A stretch of 25,810 nt of DNA from a virus (taxonomy: Duplodnaviria; Caudoviricetes): the IMG/VR virus record IMGVR_UViG_3300017914_001834, positions 1-25,810 of that record. One strand, given 5' to 3'. A program made the position numbers and the translations under genes. Positions 11,901 through 25,810 of this stretch are shown here, piece by piece (the first letter of the stretch is position 1; each line of letters starts with the position of its first letter). The notes under the pieces are model-generated. The model made no database searches. It saw only the letters and a list, made by a program, of their open reading frames with translations, and had not been told where the DNA came from.

Positions 11901-13676
11901 TTTGATCCTTGGATCCGTACTCGTGAGCGTGGCGGCAAAGGCTTGTAGAGCTACCGACATCTTCTGGAAGGCAGCGCTAACCGCTAAGGCCAACCTCCCA
12001 AACGTCAATTTGACTTGAGTGACGAAGCGGGTAAAGAAGGCAGTGACAGGAGCCCACGCCTTCAGAATCGTCCCGCCAACCAGCGCGAGTTTGATCAGAC
12101 CTGTGACGCCTGTTGCGTCAAGGACTTTCATCGTTGCGGTCAGCTGCGCGAAGTACTGAACAATTGGCTGCTGCAGCAACTTGCCGTAAAGACCCAACAG
12201 GTTGCTGAATAATTGGATGATTGGAGTAAGGACTCGCGCTAGTTGTCCCAACGTCTGGACTAAGGCCTTGAATACTTCAATCGAAATATCCGCAAATCCA
12301 ACCGCTAAGCCCGCAAGACCTTTGCCTAACGCCAGTACTGCTTCCGTAATTTGCTCAAACAGATCCGTTACAGGACCAAGCAGCTGGATGATGTCGTCCT
12401 GAATGGTCGAGAACGCGCTCGCTACTGCGGTTTGGAGCTTTGTTGCTAAGCCCTCGAAACTCAGGTTCGCGAAAATGTCCGCACTACCGAGACCGCCGGC
12501 TACCAACGTCAAAATCGAGGCAATTGCTTCCCCTCCCGCACTCGCAATGTCCTTCAGCTGCTTGAAAATGCTGAAGAGTGAGTCGAATACGAGCGATAGG
12601 CCAGACAGCAGGGGCTTAAGCAGAGGCTTGCCCGCGAGCCGGCCGACTTCCTCGAAGATCTCCGCGATGTTGGAGACCACACCAGAGAAGCTTTGCGCTG
12701 CGATCTTTTGACCCGCAACCGAGGCCGCTAATCGCTTGTCCAAAAAGCCCATCAGCCCTTCGGCTGTGCTCTTCGCTTTCTGTACGTCCTCGTTCGTGAT
12801 ACCCAGGGCTTTTGCCAGGTAGGAGTCCTGCGTGATGTCGCCGCGCAGGATTGATCCGATCTCCTGCCGTGCCTGGTACAGCGGGATGCCGAAGGTGCCG
12901 AGTGCTGCGGAGAATTGGATTGCCAGGTCTTCTGCATCTTCGAGACCGCCACCGATTTGGCCGATCTGCTGCGCCACCATCCCGAAGACTTCGATCACAT
13001 CGTTGGATGTGACTCCGGCCAGATCCAAGGAACGCTCTCGGATGCTGTCGATGTTGCTTTCGATCTGACTCGTCAGCGTGACGATTTTTTCGTAGGGGTC
13101 GGTGATCTCCTGGCTGCCCTTGAACACCTTGCTGGTACTGGCCAGTGCGGCCTGGGTCTTCAGGATCGTTTCCTGCAGCTGGATTTCACGGCCGATCGTT
13201 GCGTTGAAGAAGGCTGTGTAGGCGCTGCCGAGAATGCCAACGGCTTCCTTGACCGCATAGATCGCAAAGCCAACCTTGGCCAGATTCGTGATCAGGGTAT
13301 TGGCTGCACCACCCGCTGTTTTCAGGCTCGTGGCAAGGATGTTGCCCGCTTTGGCTCCCTCCTTCAGACCCGCTGCGGCTTGGGGTGCATTAGCTGCAAC
13401 CTTCGCTGTGCCTGCTGCTAAGTCCTCGATGTCTTGGACTCTCTCGCCAAGTCCAGGTACTTTTTTACTTATGTTGTAAAAGGTTTTGATATTGTTGGCG
13501 GCTTCTTTTACGCCTGCGTTGATCTTTTTATAGTTCTTTTGAATGTCTGCGAGGTTTGTTACCCCGATTTTTATACTTCTATCCTTTGTTGCCTTATCCG
13601 CTATCCGATCAGTCTTGACGAGTTGCGCATTTGCCTGCTGCGTGTCAGCCGAGACCCTGATTTGATAGTCAGCCAC
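8928..13676 (-). CDS. Tail tape measure protein with an internal lytic transglycosylase (SLT) domain, 1582 aa
   Basis: Long Ala/Leu-rich helical and coiled-coil protein following the chaperone pair. SLT motifs 'IIGKESGGN' and 'GATGLGQVMP'; typical C-terminal 'FAEGGYVTGPTPALIGEGGENEYVIP'. Confidence 0.92.
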   Translation of the reverse strand: MADYQIRVSADTQQANAQLVKTDRIADKATKDRSIKIGVTNLADIQKNYKKINAGVKEAANNIKTFYNISKKVPGLGERVQDIEDLAAGTAKVAANAPQAAAGLKEGAKAGNILATSLKTAGGAANTLITNLAKVGFAIYAVKEAVGILGSAYTAFFNATIGREIQLQETILKTQAALASTSKVFKGSQEITDPYEKIVTLTSQIESNIDSIRERSLDLAGVTSNDVIEVFGMVAQQIGQIGGGLEDAEDLAIQFSAALGTFGIPLYQARQEIGSILRGDITQDSYLAKALGITNEDVQKAKSTAEGLMGFLDKRLAASVAGQKIAAQSFSGVVSNIAEIFEEVGRLAGKPLLKPLLSGLSLVFDSLFSIFKQLKDIASAGGEAIASILTLVAGGLGSADIFANLSFEGLATKLQTAVASAFSTIQDDIIQLLGPVTDLFEQITEAVLALGKGLAGLAVGFADISIEVFKALVQTLGQLARVLTPIIQLFSNLLGLYGKLLQQPIVQYFAQLTATMKVLDATGVTGLIKLALVGGTILKAWAPVTAFFTRFVTQVKLTFGRLALAVSAAFQKMSVALQAFAATLTSTDPRIKKFQASIESLGVSLDKTAVKAKRAGAAATTMAGGVGALAKGIKGAIAGFAIFAAKLIAIQLIIAAVMKIIGDFQAKQAEIAAYNRANAAIDELNQKFSDQEKTLTTTEKAYKQYLETLADTAYNKAIQKVGELTEEINKLNDAINDPNRLPATAMSGNSALRNDKKRLAELQKEREKYNEIIEKRDAQRKKKNDEDLVRTMSENRQSMEKELANLRKQLIDDEFRYRQQAARLGVEAERLRGELLIRQEERRNAKRLEGEEGASRAFLENLNKYLSTKMRGELDIAAREKELEIAMANLSKEAADYQLQIQKQIAELQKKMGKYQKEVADYQAEKAKEAATARSSGGGNRTFEGDDMVSQLANAIIGKESGGNSRASNASGSGATGLGQVMPENIGPWTERYLGKRLTQEQFRNDTDAQMKVILGRFKDMLNDSISKGYSDEEAMRRAASEWYSGQPGLHMDTRAQSYNGDPYPSIKEYVDDVMSRVGTANFTSGGSTQPSTPTTGNGPEAPNTDMSVDASGVQGAIGAVEQMTRLVDQLKTDLKDDEIAAAFEATFQGVFDTAPLEQYDDQLVQIRAQMEAIAANPLENPEGAAIKAQQQAELNRLRREEQQIRETLAEKESEGVITTEQRVELEEKMAEAIQKRQENLTSEVEKKQEVAAAQRALNNLQEVQNEAKNVQAQIDQTILQLQMGMKGANQQQIAIQTRLLAIERQRAQALRGLTDPADIAKVNAAYDTLIAKVKELGQAQAALSNPITQTFMQWKREISDTSAMIASLAQSVQQALAQGMSSAIIGVIEGTQTVEEAMADMFKSIGRAFIEMATQMIAKALMMQVLGIFLPGAGSGGGGGFGGINLGVASGGGFGAGLFGFAEGGYVTGPTPALIGEGGENEYVIPESKMESSLQRWTSGARGDQVVSGSGASGSGGMAGEETEPYNPNININGGVLNFNGDEYIQKSELPDIIMQASKQGEARTLARMRNSPSVRRKLAI

Positions 13677-13706: not shown

Positions 13707-14192
13707 TTACGAGTCGCGTTCTGCTCGATTGTTCAGCGCCACGTAAACATGCATCGGGATCTGGAACGATCGGATCAGTTCCGTCAATACAAATTTCGTG
13801 GGCTCACTCGGTCCATCGCTCTCGGCTGAAGGCGGACGGTAGTCGGGGAACGGCAGGAAGTCTGTCGGCTTCGTCTGCGGGGGACTCTTCTTTGAGCCCG
13901 AGAAGCCGTGCGCGATCTTCAGCATCATGTCTGCCATTCGCGCAGCGGTAATCGACTCCATATTCGCTTTCACCTGATCCATGTCATCCAATTTCTCCAG
14001 CACCCACCGGATTACTGAAATTGGAGTGCGCAGAAACTTTCCGCGCGGGAAGTCCGCCCCCATCGGCGATACACGGATTCGAAAGTAGATCTGCTCCCAG
14101 TCCGGTTCGGGACTGCGGAGATACTCCCCGATCTCTTCGAGCTCCTGCTCTGGAGTAATTACTCGTCGACTACGACCTCGGTGGGCTCCTCC
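13707..14192 (-). CDS. Tail assembly chaperone C-terminal part (gpT-like), expected as a -1 frameshift fusion with 14159-14683 (~325 aa)
   Basis: Overlaps the upstream ORF in the -1 frame and sits directly before the TMP. In-frame A AAA AAG at 14198-14192. Confidence 0.8.
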   Translation of the reverse strand, partial: GGAHRGRSRRVITPEQELEEIGEYLRSPEPDWEQIYFRIRVSPMGADFPRGKFLRTPISVIRWVLEKLDDMDQVKANMESITAARMADMMLKIAHGFSGSKKSPPQTKPTDFLPFPDYRPPSAESDGPSEPTKFVLTELIRSFQIPMHVYVALNNRAERDS

Positions 14193-14680
14193 TTTTTTGG
14201 CCAACCATCCCGCTCCCACAGGATCAGGGTGAAGATCTCTTCCAAAATCTTGGCGGGCATGGCTTCAGTGTCTTCCACGCTCCAGTCGGACAGCTTCTCC
14301 CACTTGCGCTTGCCGTTCAGCTGCGCTTCGCCCCGGTACTGCATGAACAGGGTCACGAAGGAAACCTTCTGCTCAACCGCTCCAACGTTGTCGGCTTGGA
14401 GTTCTTCGAGCTCGGGAGCGAAGTCGTAGACCAACTCCTCCGTTCCCTCTTCTCCAATCTTCGAAAGCAGCTCGACCGCTTCCTTAGTTCCAATACCCTT
14501 CGCCTTCCCGATCTTTTGGGCCACCTTGATTGACTTGAAGGTGTTTTTGCTCTGCTGACGGGTGATGAGCTCCATCCCCTTTGATTCGCCAGGCACCAAA
14601 TCGTGATACACCGGGAAACGAAATGGGGCGATCTCGTAATACTCCTCAGGGGAGAAGAGGATTGAGGCGTATTTCGACAT
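14159..14680 (-). CDS. Tail assembly chaperone (gpG-like)
   Basis: Acidic protein of about 173 aa between tail tube and TMP, with a slippery heptamer near its 3' end. ATG at 14680. Confidence 0.8.
   Translation of the reverse strand: MSKYASILFSPEEYYEIAPFRFPVYHDLVPGESKGMELITRQQSKNTFKSIKVAQKIGKAKGIGTKEAVELLSKIGEEGTEELVYDFAPELEELQADNVGAVEQKVSFVTLFMQYRGEAQLNGKRKWEKLSDWSVEDTEAMPAKILEEIFTLILWERDGWPKKEEPTEVVVDE
14192..14198 (-). other. -1 ribosomal frameshift slippery site A AAA AAG (tail chaperone)
   Basis: CCA AAA AAG GAG in frame 0; the -1 frame continues KKGGAHR... into the 13707 ORF. Confidence 0.8.
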
Positions 14681-21195: not shown

Positions 21196-21438
21196 TCAAC
21201 ATTTCCATCTGCGACGAGCGGCTTTCCCTCGCTCACCAGTCCATGAACGACTGCGGGCGCAAAAACTGGCTCGCCGTTTCGCTGCCTTCGATCCTGGCTT
21301 CACTTTCCCTGTAACGGGAGCCTTCAAGTTGCTCCCAGTTGCGCGGTTGTAACGAGCTCGGCCTTTGGCGGTTAAGCCACCGCCTTTTTCAACCGATTGT
21401 TTCTCACCGCGCCCGACGCTTAACGACGGGCCTTCGTC
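21196..21438 (-). CDS. Basic DUF6321-like module, probably made as a -1 frameshift extension of 21420-22346 (~383-aa fusion)
   Basis: 'GGGLTAKGRARYNRATGSNLKAPV...RRASFCARS...RRRWKC'. It has no ATG of its own and is reached by an in-frame A AAA AAG at 21444-21438. Family name is from recall. Confidence 0.65.
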   Translation of the reverse strand, partial: DEGPSLSVGRGEKQSVEKGGGLTAKGRARYNRATGSNLKAPVTGKVKPGSKAAKRRASFCARSRSWTGERGKAARRRWKC

Positions 21439-22346
21439 TTTTTTGCAGGGAATCCCTCTGCCCACACACTCCGCTTCGCACTCGTGAGTTTGTCCTCTCC
21501 GTCCTGACCCGTTTTGCGCTTCACCTCAGACTTGGCTTTGCTTGTAGGAACGCAATTGGGCACGATGCGGTTGCCCTTACGCTTCATACCCTTCTGCACA
21601 TAGCCCTTCCAGCAGGCATCGTCTCGGAACATGCCGGCCTGCAGTTCGCCCTCGAAACCATCTGCCCAAAATGGCTTCTTGCTGTTCCTGTAGCCCGGTT
21701 CATACTTGCGGCGCATCTTTTCAGTCATGAGACGAGCGTTGTTGAGTTTGTTTTGGCGGCGAAGGCTGCGGCTGAAAGTCTGAGGATTGAACCTCATGGT
21801 GGGCTTTCTTGCTGTGGCCTTTTGTGCGCTAGACAGCCATTTTGAGGCTTGAAGCAGATCGCCGAAATTGCGGTTCTGCTCCTCAAAATTAGATAGCTGC
21901 TTTCCTTGACGCTGACGGTTGTAGCTGTACGACTCAAGCGCGGTATTGAAAGTCTCCGAAGCTGCAAGGCTTGCTGCTTTCAGATTGCCGCTTTGAAATG
22001 CTCTCTTCGCTGATCGAGCCGCTTGAGCAGATTCGATCACGTTTTTGCCAGTGGCAAAGCTCAACAGCTTCTTATTGCCCGTCCGCTCACCACGTTCTTG
22101 CGCGTACTCAGAGGCGTTCTTTCCTGCACTCAGCAACTGCTTGACTGCACGACCTCGGTTGCCCGTTAGCGCTGAGCGGGCAGCACGAACACCTTGCACA
22201 GCAGTGGCGGCTGCAAATGCACGCTCTTTCAGTTCAGGCCCTTTCGTGGACTTGGCTGATGTGCGCTTGCTGCATTTGGCATTGTCTGGAATACCCGATT
22301 TGCCACAACGCTTATCAGCTCTGAAAGTATCAGCGGTGAGGACCAT
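21420..22346 (-). CDS. Basic modular hypothetical protein, putative internal head protein, 308 aa
   Basis: Coupled to the upstream stop (TGATG). Contains CGxSxIPx4C, two WAxGF motifs and CWKGY...VPNCVP. Confidence 0.8.
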   Translation of the reverse strand: MVLTADTFRADKRCGKSGIPDNAKCSKRTSAKSTKGPELKERAFAAATAVQGVRAARSALTGNRGRAVKQLLSAGKNASEYAQERGERTGNKKLLSFATGKNVIESAQAARSAKRAFQSGNLKAASLAASETFNTALESYSYNRQRQGKQLSNFEEQNRNFGDLLQASKWLSSAQKATARKPTMRFNPQTFSRSLRRQNKLNNARLMTEKMRRKYEPGYRNSKKPFWADGFEGELQAGMFRDDACWKGYVQKGMKRKGNRIVPNCVPTSKAKSEVKRKTGQDGEDKLTSAKRSVWAEGFPAKKTKARR

Positions 22347-22830: not shown

Positions 22831-23703
22831 TCAGTTTAGAGACAGTGGAACAGGCGCAAGTTGCTCAAATACGCCCGCCCTGGACAGGTTGACGGGCTCG
22901 ATGGTGTTGACTTCTCTCATCTCTTTCTGGTGCCGTTCACCAGCAGCCCTATAAGCGGGATCCATTGCAGCAATATCAGGATCCCAAGGAGAGAGATAAC
23001 AACGACATCGGGGGTGGACGGGGACTCGTATGTCACTGCGCTTGTAGATTTGACCGCCTCGTGGTGCGCAGATTGGGCAGGAGCGGTCATCAGCTGTCGC
23101 GTAATAGAGGACCGTGTCGACTCCATTCTGGGCGTAGTAGCTGTTGGAGGCTTCGTTGTATGCGCGAAGCGACTCAGTACGGACAATTACCTCGGCGCGG
23201 CTTTTCACCACTCCCAAACGGTCTCGTAGTTCGCGGACCATGCGGTCCTGACTGCGACCCTCGGCTATTCCCGAGGCAATAATCTCCGCTGAAGTTTCAG
23301 CGAAGCGTTCACCATGCTTTCGCAAGTAGCCATGCGATTGCTTCGCAGCTGCCACCGTCGCTTCCAACGGGATTGAAACGTCGATTCGGGGCCGGTTCCC
23401 GGCCATCTGGCCCACCAGGGCGTCTGCGACATCCACACCGTGGTCTGTCGCGCGTCGTAAGACTGTGTGGAATGTTCGGTCGTATTCATCTGTCTTGCCG
23501 GGATGAACTGCAGGGACCAGTTCGCGCAATTCGCGGAGGATTGCGATGTCGCGCTCGGTCTTAGGTGCATTTTCGGTGCGTAACCACACCCGGATGCGTC
23601 GTACGACACGGTTAAACGATTTATCCAGCACCTTGTTCAACACCTTGATGGTGTGTTCCTCCTCTCGCTTCAGGATCAGGTTGTATTCCTCAACTAGGTC
23701 CAT
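22831..23703 (-). CDS. Phage head morphogenesis protein (MuF / SPP1 gp7 family), short form, 290 aa
   Basis: 'RAEVIVRTESLRAYN', 'DDRSCPICAP' and 'PVHPRCRC' are MuF signature motifs. Confidence 0.92.
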   Translation of the reverse strand: MDLVEEYNLILKREEEHTIKVLNKVLDKSFNRVVRRIRVWLRTENAPKTERDIAILRELRELVPAVHPGKTDEYDRTFHTVLRRATDHGVDVADALVGQMAGNRPRIDVSIPLEATVAAAKQSHGYLRKHGERFAETSAEIIASGIAEGRSQDRMVRELRDRLGVVKSRAEVIVRTESLRAYNEASNSYYAQNGVDTVLYYATADDRSCPICAPRGGQIYKRSDIRVPVHPRCRCYLSPWDPDIAAMDPAYRAAGERHQKEMREVNTIEPVNLSRAGVFEQLAPVPLSLN

Positions 23704-25810
23704 GCGAAACGTGTAGCCATGTAGGCATCACGGCGGGCGCCGGTCTTCTCCTCTTTCTGAGCGGGCTCTTCTTCATCGTCTCCCTGCTCAGCGAAGCCCT
23801 GTTCACCCTGGTTCTCAGGACGGGCTCGACCATCGATTACCTCGTACATCCGGACGGTCTCGATGTAATCGTTGAGGATCTGCATCTGGTCGTCCTCCAG
23901 CTCAGCCTGCATGGCCTGACCGAGGAGCTCGGCGAACGCTTTCACATCGCCCTTTACCGCAGCAGCTTGGACTTTGGGGTACAGATCGAGCAATAAATCA
24001 TCGCCTTGCAGCTTTTGCTCCTTGGCTTTGGGTGCATCCAGCCGATCCTTGATGTACTGGCGTTCTCCTTGTACAACCAACTCCTCCACCACAGAGCTGA
24101 ACGTTCTCGCTGGTTTCTTGGCCGGCTGGCTTAAGGCGTAGTCGGTGGTCTGCTTGGTCCACTCATAAGCAACGGGAAAGGACTTTTTCATCTGCTCACC
24201 ACCGCCGATATACATCGCGTAGTTCTCCGCGTAGGTCTCCAGACGGCTACCGGTCTCGTAGTAGTTGTTTACCTTCCCGCTTGCCTTGCGGCGAATGTCG
24301 GATTGGCCGTAGTAGCTGCTTGATTTGATCAGTTCGATCTCAAGATCAGTTCCCGTGTAGACCTTGCCGTTGACCGTCACGCTTTTCGGTGTGGCGAAGT
24401 CACCCCGGTAGTGGATGGCGTGGGCGATCTCGTGAGCGTTGGTGTAGAGGGCACGGGCTTTGGAGGTGCCCACGAATTGGCCGGTGCTGTGGAGTTCGTA
24501 GAGGTCTTCCACGCTCTGGGCTTGGCCGGCCAACAACTTGCGGCGTTCAGGACCGTTGTAGTAAGCCTCGCGCTGGGCAATCATCGACTGCACACCGCCA
24601 GCCATGGTTTCGGCGTCCGTCTTGCCCTTGTAAAGCTTCACCTGTTGACCGGTGCGGCTCATGCTCAGCTCGCTTTCGCCCCTATTGGTGTGGATGCGAT
24701 TGGGTTGAGCGGTGTCGAAATAACCTTTGACACCACCTGCGAGAGCGGTGGTTTTGACACGCTGCACATCGATGCCGGCTTCCTGCACGAAGCCCACCAT
24801 CTGATCGATCGTGGCGTCCTCGACACCGTCCAAACCCTTCAGGGAACTGAAGTCTTTGACCAAGTCCTTGTTGCTGCGAGTAACTTGCAGCTCACGCTTC
24901 AGGCTCTTGGCACCGAGCAGGGAGGCAAGCGCTAATCCACCTGCAGCCAGAGGATCCTGCTTGGCAGTCTTGGCGGCAAGAACCCCAGTACCAACAGTGA
25001 AGCCGGCACGAGCGAGGGCGCTGCCGAGCTGACGGGCTCGGTAAGCAGCGGTGCGCTCACCCTTCTCGTTGGTGTGTTGGACCGCTTCGGTCTTGCCCTT
25101 CTCACGGATGCTCGCAATCTTCGACTCCTTGCTGGAGCCCTTTAAGGCTGCGCCACCTGTGCCGATCGTGCATTCGTGCTTGGAAGGGATATGCGACTCA
25201 CCGCATGCCTTCCCCTTGGACTTTTTTGAGGAGGCGTCCTCCCGCAGTCGCAGCTTCTCGGCCTCGTAGGCATCACTGCGCTTGGCAGCTAACGCCTCGG
25301 CTGGGATCTCCACACTGAAGGAGAGCTTGATGGGTTTGGCGCTCGGCCGGGGCTCTTCCTCTGCCTGCTGTTCTGCCTCTTTCGGGCTCGGTGATTCGCT
25401 CATCTTCGACACCGGCATCAGGGGAGTGACCATCTCGTCCTCATCAGCCGGCAGGTGCTCTGTGCTGGTGGGCCCGTTCACCACTGTGGGAGTGCTGTTG
25501 GTCACCAGCGGGCTCGGGGGATTGCGCTTGGTGATGGTGAGTGACATGTGCTCGTCATCCCCACGGATCTCCTTGCGGGCTAGGGCGTAAGCCTCAGCCA
25601 AAGTGCCAGTCCAACCCTTGCGCTTCATGATCGATTTGGCCAGTTCGGTCTGGCGTTGCGCGGCACTGAGTCCAGTTTTGGGCTTCTTGGGTGTGGTGGG
25701 CTTCTTGCCCTTGGCAGCCTTGGGGGTTTTGGGTACTTCGCTTGGAGCACTCAGGCCGCGAATGCCGGACTCGCGAACGATGGAGAAAGCGTCGGAAGCG
25801 TTGGGAGTGG
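23694..25810 (-). CDS. Large modular protein with a zincin-like metallopeptidase domain, 5'-truncated by the window edge (>704 aa)
   Basis: The frame stays open upstream of the track's ATG 25628 to the window end (TPNASDAFSIVRESG...PKTPKAAKGKKPTTPKKPK...). HEIAH at 24434-24420 and ETYAE at 24239-24225. Confidence 0.8.
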   Translation of the reverse strand, partial: TPNASDAFSIVRESGIRGLSAPSEVPKTPKAAKGKKPTTPKKPKTGLSAAQRQTELAKSIMKRKGWTGTLAEAYALARKEIRGDDEHMSLTITKRNPPSPLVTNSTPTVVNGPTSTEHLPADEDEMVTPLMPVSKMSESPSPKEAEQQAEEEPRPSAKPIKLSFSVEIPAEALAAKRSDAYEAEKLRLREDASSKKSKGKACGESHIPSKHECTIGTGGAALKGSSKESKIASIREKGKTEAVQHTNEKGERTAAYRARQLGSALARAGFTVGTGVLAAKTAKQDPLAAGGLALASLLGAKSLKRELQVTRSNKDLVKDFSSLKGLDGVEDATIDQMVGFVQEAGIDVQRVKTTALAGGVKGYFDTAQPNRIHTNRGESELSMSRTGQQVKLYKGKTDAETMAGGVQSMIAQREAYYNGPERRKLLAGQAQSVEDLYELHSTGQFVGTSKARALYTNAHEIAHAIHYRGDFATPKSVTVNGKVYTGTDLEIELIKSSSYYGQSDIRRKASGKVNNYYETGSRLETYAENYAMYIGGGEQMKKSFPVAYEWTKQTTDYALSQPAKKPARTFSSVVEELVVQGERQYIKDRLDAPKAKEQKLQGDDLLLDLYPKVQAAAVKGDVKAFAELLGQAMQAELEDDQMQILNDYIETVRMYEVIDGRARPENQGEQGFAEQGDDEEEPAQKEEKTGARRDAYMATRFAWT

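Follow-up and report, generated by a model that had tools for sequence, protein, structure and literature searches.

Can a phage gene whose reading frame runs on unbroken hide a signal that makes some ribosomes leave that frame and end the protein early? The question is raised by a 25,810-nt stretch of viral DNA (hereafter the window), in which a large head-region gene contains a candidate -1 frameshift site. The original prediction had held that slippage here would leave no break in the ORF, and the gene does read through the site; it had also held that shifted chains would lack a two-cysteine tag, a hydrophobic hairpin and an HExxH domain, and the site indeed precedes all three (Table 1). 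From the evidence below, we consider it likely that the cassette is a programmed -1 frameshift that cuts a protein of ~1,220 aa to ~720 aa, with loss of its swappable cargo.

The window comprises the head and tail module of an S-CBS4-like siphovirus on one 25.8-kb contig, with the head and tail genes on the minus strand. Pfam and PHROG profiles identified minus-strand genes for MuF, a DUF2213 head protease, cement, major capsid, major tail and tape-measure proteins. Among cultured phages, Synechococcus phage S-CBS4 has the closest capsid (56%; next best 33%), and window DNA was found in seawater metagenomes (20 runs listed, no RNA run among them). A cyanobacterial host is likely; the 56% capsid match is the one sequence-based argument for it, because a GTDB scan returned two short contigs, binned under Burkholderiaceae and Rubrivivax, and both fall short of the junction at which the candidate site lies.

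Relatives of the visible 704-aa ORF are 1,216-1,230 aa long (~1,220 aa), the six closest being 65-87% identical. The parts of the large protein follow in the order conserved N-domain, RxD motif, slip site, CG tag, hydrophobic hairpin and HExxH metallopeptidase-like cargo. Upstream of the slip site lies a conserved domain of ~600 aa that matches no known family: the window's protein, including its RxD and CG-tag motifs, had no Pfam or PHROG match, P0001, P0017 and P0021, searched at full length, had no Pfam match, ESM Atlas searches with both protein halves gave only scores of 0.83 or less, and a tblastn search with the large protein found no match in 50,697 phage records. Downstream of HEIAH, E524 and E528 are invariant in the alignment of relatives, and an HExxH homologue in locus L002 weakly matches the Pfam families ATLF and MPTase-PolyVal, both below their curated cut-offs. 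At least six clusters occur among the 50 cargoes longer than 200 aa, and they include LRAT/NlpC-P60-like domains and the window's HExxH domain; by eye, the 229-aa cargo of L224, which has no Pfam match, may resemble a phage ADP-ribosyltransferase. Within the N-terminal part, an acidic, Pro-rich insert of ~95 aa (window ~25560-25280, minus strand) begins at an RGD motif, is found in some orthologues of two clades and is missing from others; it is a mobile module bounded by RxD motifs.

At the slip site itself, the proposed elements were all recovered: GGAGG (25242-25238), 10 nt, A AAA AAG, 7 nt and the hairpin, together with the -1 reading KKVQGEGMR and its TGA. When codons were resampled with the peptide fixed (5,000 draws), the heptamer arose in 3.6%, GGAGG in 12% and an equally stable hairpin in 2.7% of draws, and all three jointly in 0.02%, a post hoc figure uncorrected for the 41 listed Lys-Lys pairs. 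The hairpin had a z of -1.9 against dinucleotide shuffles (10/200 equally stable) and of -2.5 against synonymous resampling (p 0.02), and the 101-nt region around the site was of ordinary overall stability (z -0.67). The SD-like motif had further been placed in a mini-hairpin of its own; such a hairpin exists (6 bp, 25243-25229), but its stability is not significant (z -1.2) and a functional role for it is unsupported. The cassette at 25242-25182 is probably not a product of chance.

Table 1 Features of the large head-region gene and in-frame slippery heptamers of the window.
Feature	Position	Strand	Details
Large head-region gene	23694..25808	minus	5'-open ORF, 704 aa visible in the window
RxD motif (R189-E-D191)	25236..25244	minus	Same R and D in all 15 aligned rows; motif 3 codons ahead of the heptamer
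SD-like GGGAGG	25238..25243	minus	10 nt before the heptamer; anti-SD duplex -10.3 kcal/mol
Slippery heptamer A AAA AAG	25221..25227	minus	Shift-prone register (TCA AAA AAG), Lys195-Lys196
3' hairpin, predicted stimulator	25182..25213	minus	7 nt after the heptamer; 6+5 bp; -15.5 kcal/mol
-1 frame stop TGA	25198..25200	minus	Closes the tail KKVQGEGMR, 7 codons after the slip
CG tag C-G-x3-I-x5-C (residues 202-213)	25170..25205	minus	Where the exchangeable cargo cassette begins
Two moderately hydrophobic stretches (residues ~260-304)	24897..25031	minus	Kyte-Doolittle 19-residue peaks 1.2 and 1.05
HEIAH motif (residues 459-463)	24420..24434	minus	Zincin-like metallopeptidase domain
Second in-frame A AAA AAG	21438..21444	minus	ORF 22346-21420 into the -1-frame DUF6321 ORF 21465-21196; extending type
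Third in-frame A AAA AAG	14192..14198	minus	G/GT-type tail-chaperone junction, major tail/tape-measure genes

In close relatives, the Lys-Lys pair seemed unconserved at the protein level, with Ser-Gly-Lys in P0001, P0002 and P0006. DNA reversed this impression, because contigs of four sequencing runs (X5, X11, X14 and X16) show a concerted swap in which 25227, 25226 and 25225 changed together to give G GGA AAG, in two distinct alleles. The X14/X16 allele, whose elements were read by hand from difference tables, retains the SD, the 7-nt spacer and the hairpin, which gains one extra outer-stem pair and has the basal A-U of its inner stem replaced by G-C; the -1 stop follows after 5 codons. Runs X7 and X10 gave no matching contig. 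A second X5 contig keeps the heptamer unchanged, one X11 contig diverges across the slip site, and an X8 contig from a close relative is a counter-example, with C AAA AAG and a weakened SD.

We then compared the junction across the family, using loci from a capsid-anchored scan (best 80 of 255), from tag patterns and from an alignment scan. The three tag patterns, which avoid the slip site, gave 106, 18 and 20 stretches, and C-G-x3-I-x5-C tags were de-duplicated and then classed by what lies upstream. A single-protein search of IMG/VR with the junction region gave 13 pattern matches, 0 of them confirmed, and a metagenome scan gave 13 loci, made up of 3 repeats of IMG/VR contigs and 10 weak short matches. 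Removal of 5 paralogue rows reduced 66 first internal tags to 61: L054, L222, L227, L231 and L234 form a distant paralogue clade on the tree, and none of them is slippery (47/66 heptamers with these rows included).

An in-frame heptamer lies within 8 codons of the tag in 47 of the 61 orthologous junctions. Forty-three are G GGA AAG, 3 are A AAA AAG and 1 is G GGA AAA, so that 46/47 have the form X XXA AAG. Heptamers occur at 5/29 later tags of the same genes, at 6/143 other tags and at 0/63 N-terminal tags; in the background, G GGA AAG occupies 27 of 1,104 other Gly-Lys pairs and any heptamer 76 of 5,924 nine-codon windows. Peptide and codon usage at those 47 sites lead one to expect 2.8 heptamers. 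By the original prediction, homologues that use AAG AAG here without the hairpin would have spoken against the signal. This is not what was found: most keep X XXA AAG at the junction, along with an upstream SD-like sequence and a -1 stop close by. Synonymous sites in the homologues tell the same way. At four-fold degenerate sites the median identity is 0.32, near saturation, and despite this the slip-site Gly is GGA in 33/45 rows; it is the only 1 of 24 conserved Gly columns dominated by this rare codon, the other 23 holding GGA at most 8 times. The base preceding GGA is G under six different codons. The heptamer precedes all 6 cargo clusters and is present in all three main N-domain clades, and in L002, L224 and L003 it sits at other codon positions.

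These counts could also arise if the junction-plus-tag segment recombined as a cassette, its codons shared by descent and its linker simply rich in Lys and Gly, with no recoding. Exchange of this kind is visible in identical N-domains joined to different junctions (L121 vs L171), tag synonymous identity lies somewhat above that of the N-domain (0.31-0.55 vs 0.32), groups chain together at stricter cuts, and a signal missing in 14/61 orthologues fits this account as well. Yet the Gly three codons further on shows saturation (GGC 22, GGG 12, GGT 7, GGA 4), the heptamer is found behind 29 junction peptides, A AAA AAG and G GGA AAG interchange through three concerted changes, and the heptamer recurs at other codon positions. 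We therefore consider shared descent without recoding unlikely. Mosaicism of the genes nonetheless means that the counts are not independent. With synonymous identity cut at 0.7 there are 20 groups, 16 of them slippery, and the groups chain into 3 at 0.6; clustering by the N-domain only gave 24 groups at the stricter cut. The orthologues that lack the heptamer occupy ~7 separate places in the tree (8 changes with the excluded paralogue group), and since these 14/61 and the X8 relative do without it, the slip signal is dispensable in some lineages. Two loci carry more than one such site: L002 has A AAA AAG ahead of both internal tags (6244 and 7558), and L238 has two tandem G GGA AAG. A few later or unrelated tags (L135, L138, L161, L123, L202 and L212) also have G GGA AAG, and there the -1 stop comes 11 codons later.

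Upstream, an SD-like sequence 6-17 nt before the heptamer (the rule of PMC4066793) is present at 39/47 heptamer sites, as against 185/1,218 (15%) background Gly-Lys pairs. The SD signal is partly forced by the peptides, since these alone lead one to expect 25.8/47; anti-SD pairing exceeds expectation in 43/47. Among independent pairs, loss of the SD did not significantly track loss of the heptamer (3.2 same, 1.1 opposite, p ~0.6). An SD at this place could instead drive internal initiation of free cargo from a CTG or TTG before the tag, or an interdomain pause, with the heptamer as a by-product. The largest junction family does have CTG/TTG ~8 nt past the SD (26/47 have CTG/TTG before Gly), and small genes of these phages begin just ahead of a CG tag. 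The window, however, lacks an in-frame start codon at a suitable distance from the SD, the spacing is wrong in the other junction families, and the GGA and A AAA AAG alleles are left unexplained; we judge internal initiation or pausing very improbable as the function of the site.

In the -1 frame, a stop lies within 16 codons in 39/40 orthologues (the set before the last 20 loci were added); in freshwater orthologues the -1 tail is of the ALRRLAHPEGA type. GGT AAG itself yields a -1 TAA, which confounds -1-stop comparisons; with this taken into account, the stop lies within 16 codons at 48/49 slippery tags vs 28/47 non-slippery ones; a near -1 stop is also found in 10/13 non-slippery orthologues.

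Downstream, the hairpin is present in the window and in the X14/X16 allele. RNAalifold on 41 distant sites gave no consensus 3' stimulatory structure, and the one testable 3' pair showed no covariation (20/36, where 17 would be expected; p 0.12). Pairing is equally good at non-slippery second tags; a conserved pseudoknot or hairpin was sought in distant orthologues and is unsupported. The conserved element across the family is the heptamer, not the hairpin.

The sole RNAalifold consensus near the site is a 3-bp GGG-N-AAG-CCC mini-hairpin (40-41/41 per pair), and a further account would make this structure, in RNA or ssDNA, a binding, processing or recombination signal, its slipperiness being incidental. 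The Pro codon is CCC in 38/42, and GGG is kept in 7/14 non-slippery orthologues. But none of the three sites with A AAA AAG, of which the window's is one, can form the structure, no compensatory pair changes occur (zero), and neither the SD spacing nor the A at the first loop base in 43/50 GGG-N-AAG orthologues is explained, so that we hold out scant prospect for this account.

An RxD motif precedes the heptamer by 1-8 codons in 40/40 sites; the motif also occurs within 20 residues before all 55 first and 24 later tags, and at the capsid N-terminus in 80/80 loci (L018-L097). The window has 10 copies in the 437-aa protease and 6 in the large ORF, and 8 in 4,458 tail-protein residues. These features point, rather faintly, to RxD as a candidate site of cleavage by the DUF2213 prohead protease; nothing bearing on RxD cleavage was found among PDB capsid relatives. 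RxD is dense in head-region proteins, and the window stretches concerned, with the capsid N-terminus, are 18985-18962, 20921-19608, 22346-21420 and 25808-23694. The two-cysteine CG tag is a candidate capsid-targeting tag. Between the MuF and protease genes of L031, L036, L040, L048, L056 and others there are arrays of small genes, each of which opens with RxD and a C-G-x3-I-x5-C tag and continues into unrelated sequence.

The N-domain also occurs on its own. Four clusters (P0020, P0021, P0022 and P0024) include proteins that end at the junction, terminating in YLQTKRGFN on three N-domain types; P0029, clustered with P0021, continues into cargo, and one 90% cluster contains both 693-698-aa and 1,043-aa forms. 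Because four clusters include proteins that stop at the junction and one has both lengths, the N-domain alone is a natural product. A search for the DNA of these stand-alone forms gave 4 pattern matches, none in the large gene; from the protein sequences, the KRGFN ending seems to resemble a -1 reading of R-E-D-L.

In the mechanism that we favour, host 16S rRNA would pair with the SD upstream of the heptamer and ribosomes would pause at the hairpin, which may help in the window's lineage. At the Lys-Lys or Gly-Lys codons a fraction would slip back by one base, to stop 7 codons on, so that shifted chains would end at about residue 720 of 1,220 (P0001 numbering). Because RxD precedes the slip site by 1-8 codons, cleavage there would give the same mature N-domain from shifted and unshifted products, whereas CG-tagged cargo would be made by unshifted ribosomes only; the frameshift would set the ratio of N-domain to cargo above 1:1. 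The large protein would presumably be packaged in the head. That RxD cleavage equalises the mature N-domain, and that the shift thereby sets N-domain/cargo stoichiometry in the head, is a conjecture to which we give somewhat less than even weight. Just as tentatively, the head contents of S-CBS4-like phages might be RxD-cleaved, CG-tagged polyproteins with a portable, truncating -1 dosage control after the first cut site. The signal would then move with the cargo cassette on exchange, and the ratio could be reset from lineage to lineage as the heptamer is exchanged, displaced or lost, or as a stop becomes fixed there. The proposed dosage logic is that of Gag/Gag-Pol, but with the frames reversed in the phage gene.

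Among known systems, the closest in form is dnaX tau/gamma, a likeness that the original prediction had drawn and that is borne out by the register of the heptamer, the SD spacing and the nearby -1 stop. E. coli dnaX and the window share A AAA AAG, an SD 9-14 nt upstream and a close -1 stop; the 3' stem-loop of dnaX has a predicted counterpart in the window, and the shift, which gives the shorter product in dnaX, would do so in the window too. Reversal of the frame roles is known in the dnaX family (PMC5009743). The same review describes G_GGA_AAG and A_AAA_AAG as highly shift-prone in E. coli. Unlike dnaX, which encodes a replisome subunit, the phage gene belongs to a structural region, mostly uses G GGA AAG and loses a variable cassette. 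We also considered the large gene as a member of the dnaX family; it has no clamp-loader homology by its lack of any Pfam/PHROG match, and would only resemble dnaX in how it works. Shifts in alpha-carboxysome csoS2 (CsoS2A/B) and E. coli copA likewise drop a C-terminal part, though a sequence relation to the phage gene is not expected, and the csoS2 shift, which concerns the interior of a protein shell, is used by only 79/162 species, a patchy spread similar to that in the window's family (PMC5009743). csoS2 differs in that the review describes it without an SD stimulator, and the part that the phage gene would drop is an exchangeable enzyme domain. G/GT tail-chaperone shifts and those to capsid/tail Ig-like domains use the same heptamer classes as the window (PMC5009743), but they add a domain and appear as split ORFs, whereas the window site would remove ~500 aa from an unbroken ORF. 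As a G/GT shift, the 25227 site fails on both counts, being in the head region and truncating; the G/GT-type site of the window is the one at 14198. The site would work like those of dnaX, copA and csoS2 and stands outside those gene families and the G/GT class.

The arrangement of the protein also recalls polyvalent and MuF toxins, which share a conserved N-terminal part, variable C-terminal enzymes and a head-gene context, with cargo types such as zincin-like HExxH and LRAT/NlpC-P60-like domains in common with the family (PMC5512222). An N-terminal part with interchangeable C-terminal enzymes, as in polyvalent proteins, is found here too (6 cargo clusters), but MuF is not in the same polypeptide and is encoded by the separate next gene, 23703-22831. 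The word frameshift has 0 occurrences in the main text of PMC5512222. Titles and the openings of abstracts, from a collection with few subscription papers, contained no description of the large gene, its tags or its frameshift; relevant entries may exist in the candidate tables of PMC4066793 or PRFect.

In the portions of the reviews PMC5009743 and PMC4066793 that we drew on, nearly all phage frameshifts lengthen the protein and are seen as split ORFs; an exception in the former is Cro of phage A2, where a -1 shift makes a product 12 aa shorter. According to the latter portion, truncating frameshifts leave no annotation trace; here, too, a truncating shift would be invisible to annotation, because the ORF is unbroken. 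If our reading is right, such sites hide in unbroken phage ORFs, and recoding would also ration effector domains in the virion in a widespread aquatic phage family. With its natural A AAA AAG, G GGA AAG and degenerate alleles, the ~60-nt cassette would offer a series for SD-stimulated -1 shifting on a probably cyanobacterial ribosome.

The remaining heptamers of the window provide points of comparison. It had been claimed that three of four minus-strand AAAAAAG heptamers are in the shift-prone frame, and this is so for 25227, 21444 and 14198 and not for 13466. The 21444 heptamer is kept in 3/3 other informative loci (L018, L020 and L153; 4 matches, one cut by a contig end), and a single PHROG profile, phrog_10346, covers ORF 22346-21420 and the DUF6321 ORF as one protein. 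The tail-chaperone junction served as an internal positive control: it has a heptamer in 38/38 loci (the window and 37 related ones), namely 18 G GGA AAC, 15 G GGA AAG, 2 G GGA AAA and 3 A AAA AAN. G GGA AAC, the commonest there, is never found at the head-gene site. In S-CBS4 itself (L001, NC_016766.1), an in-frame A AAA AAG lies at the end of gp018 (13169-13175), in the position corresponding to 21444 upstream of the repressor and protease genes, and the -1 frame runs into gp019 via an RGD motif; judged from this arrangement, gp018-gp019 is a probable unannotated frameshift in a cultured phage.
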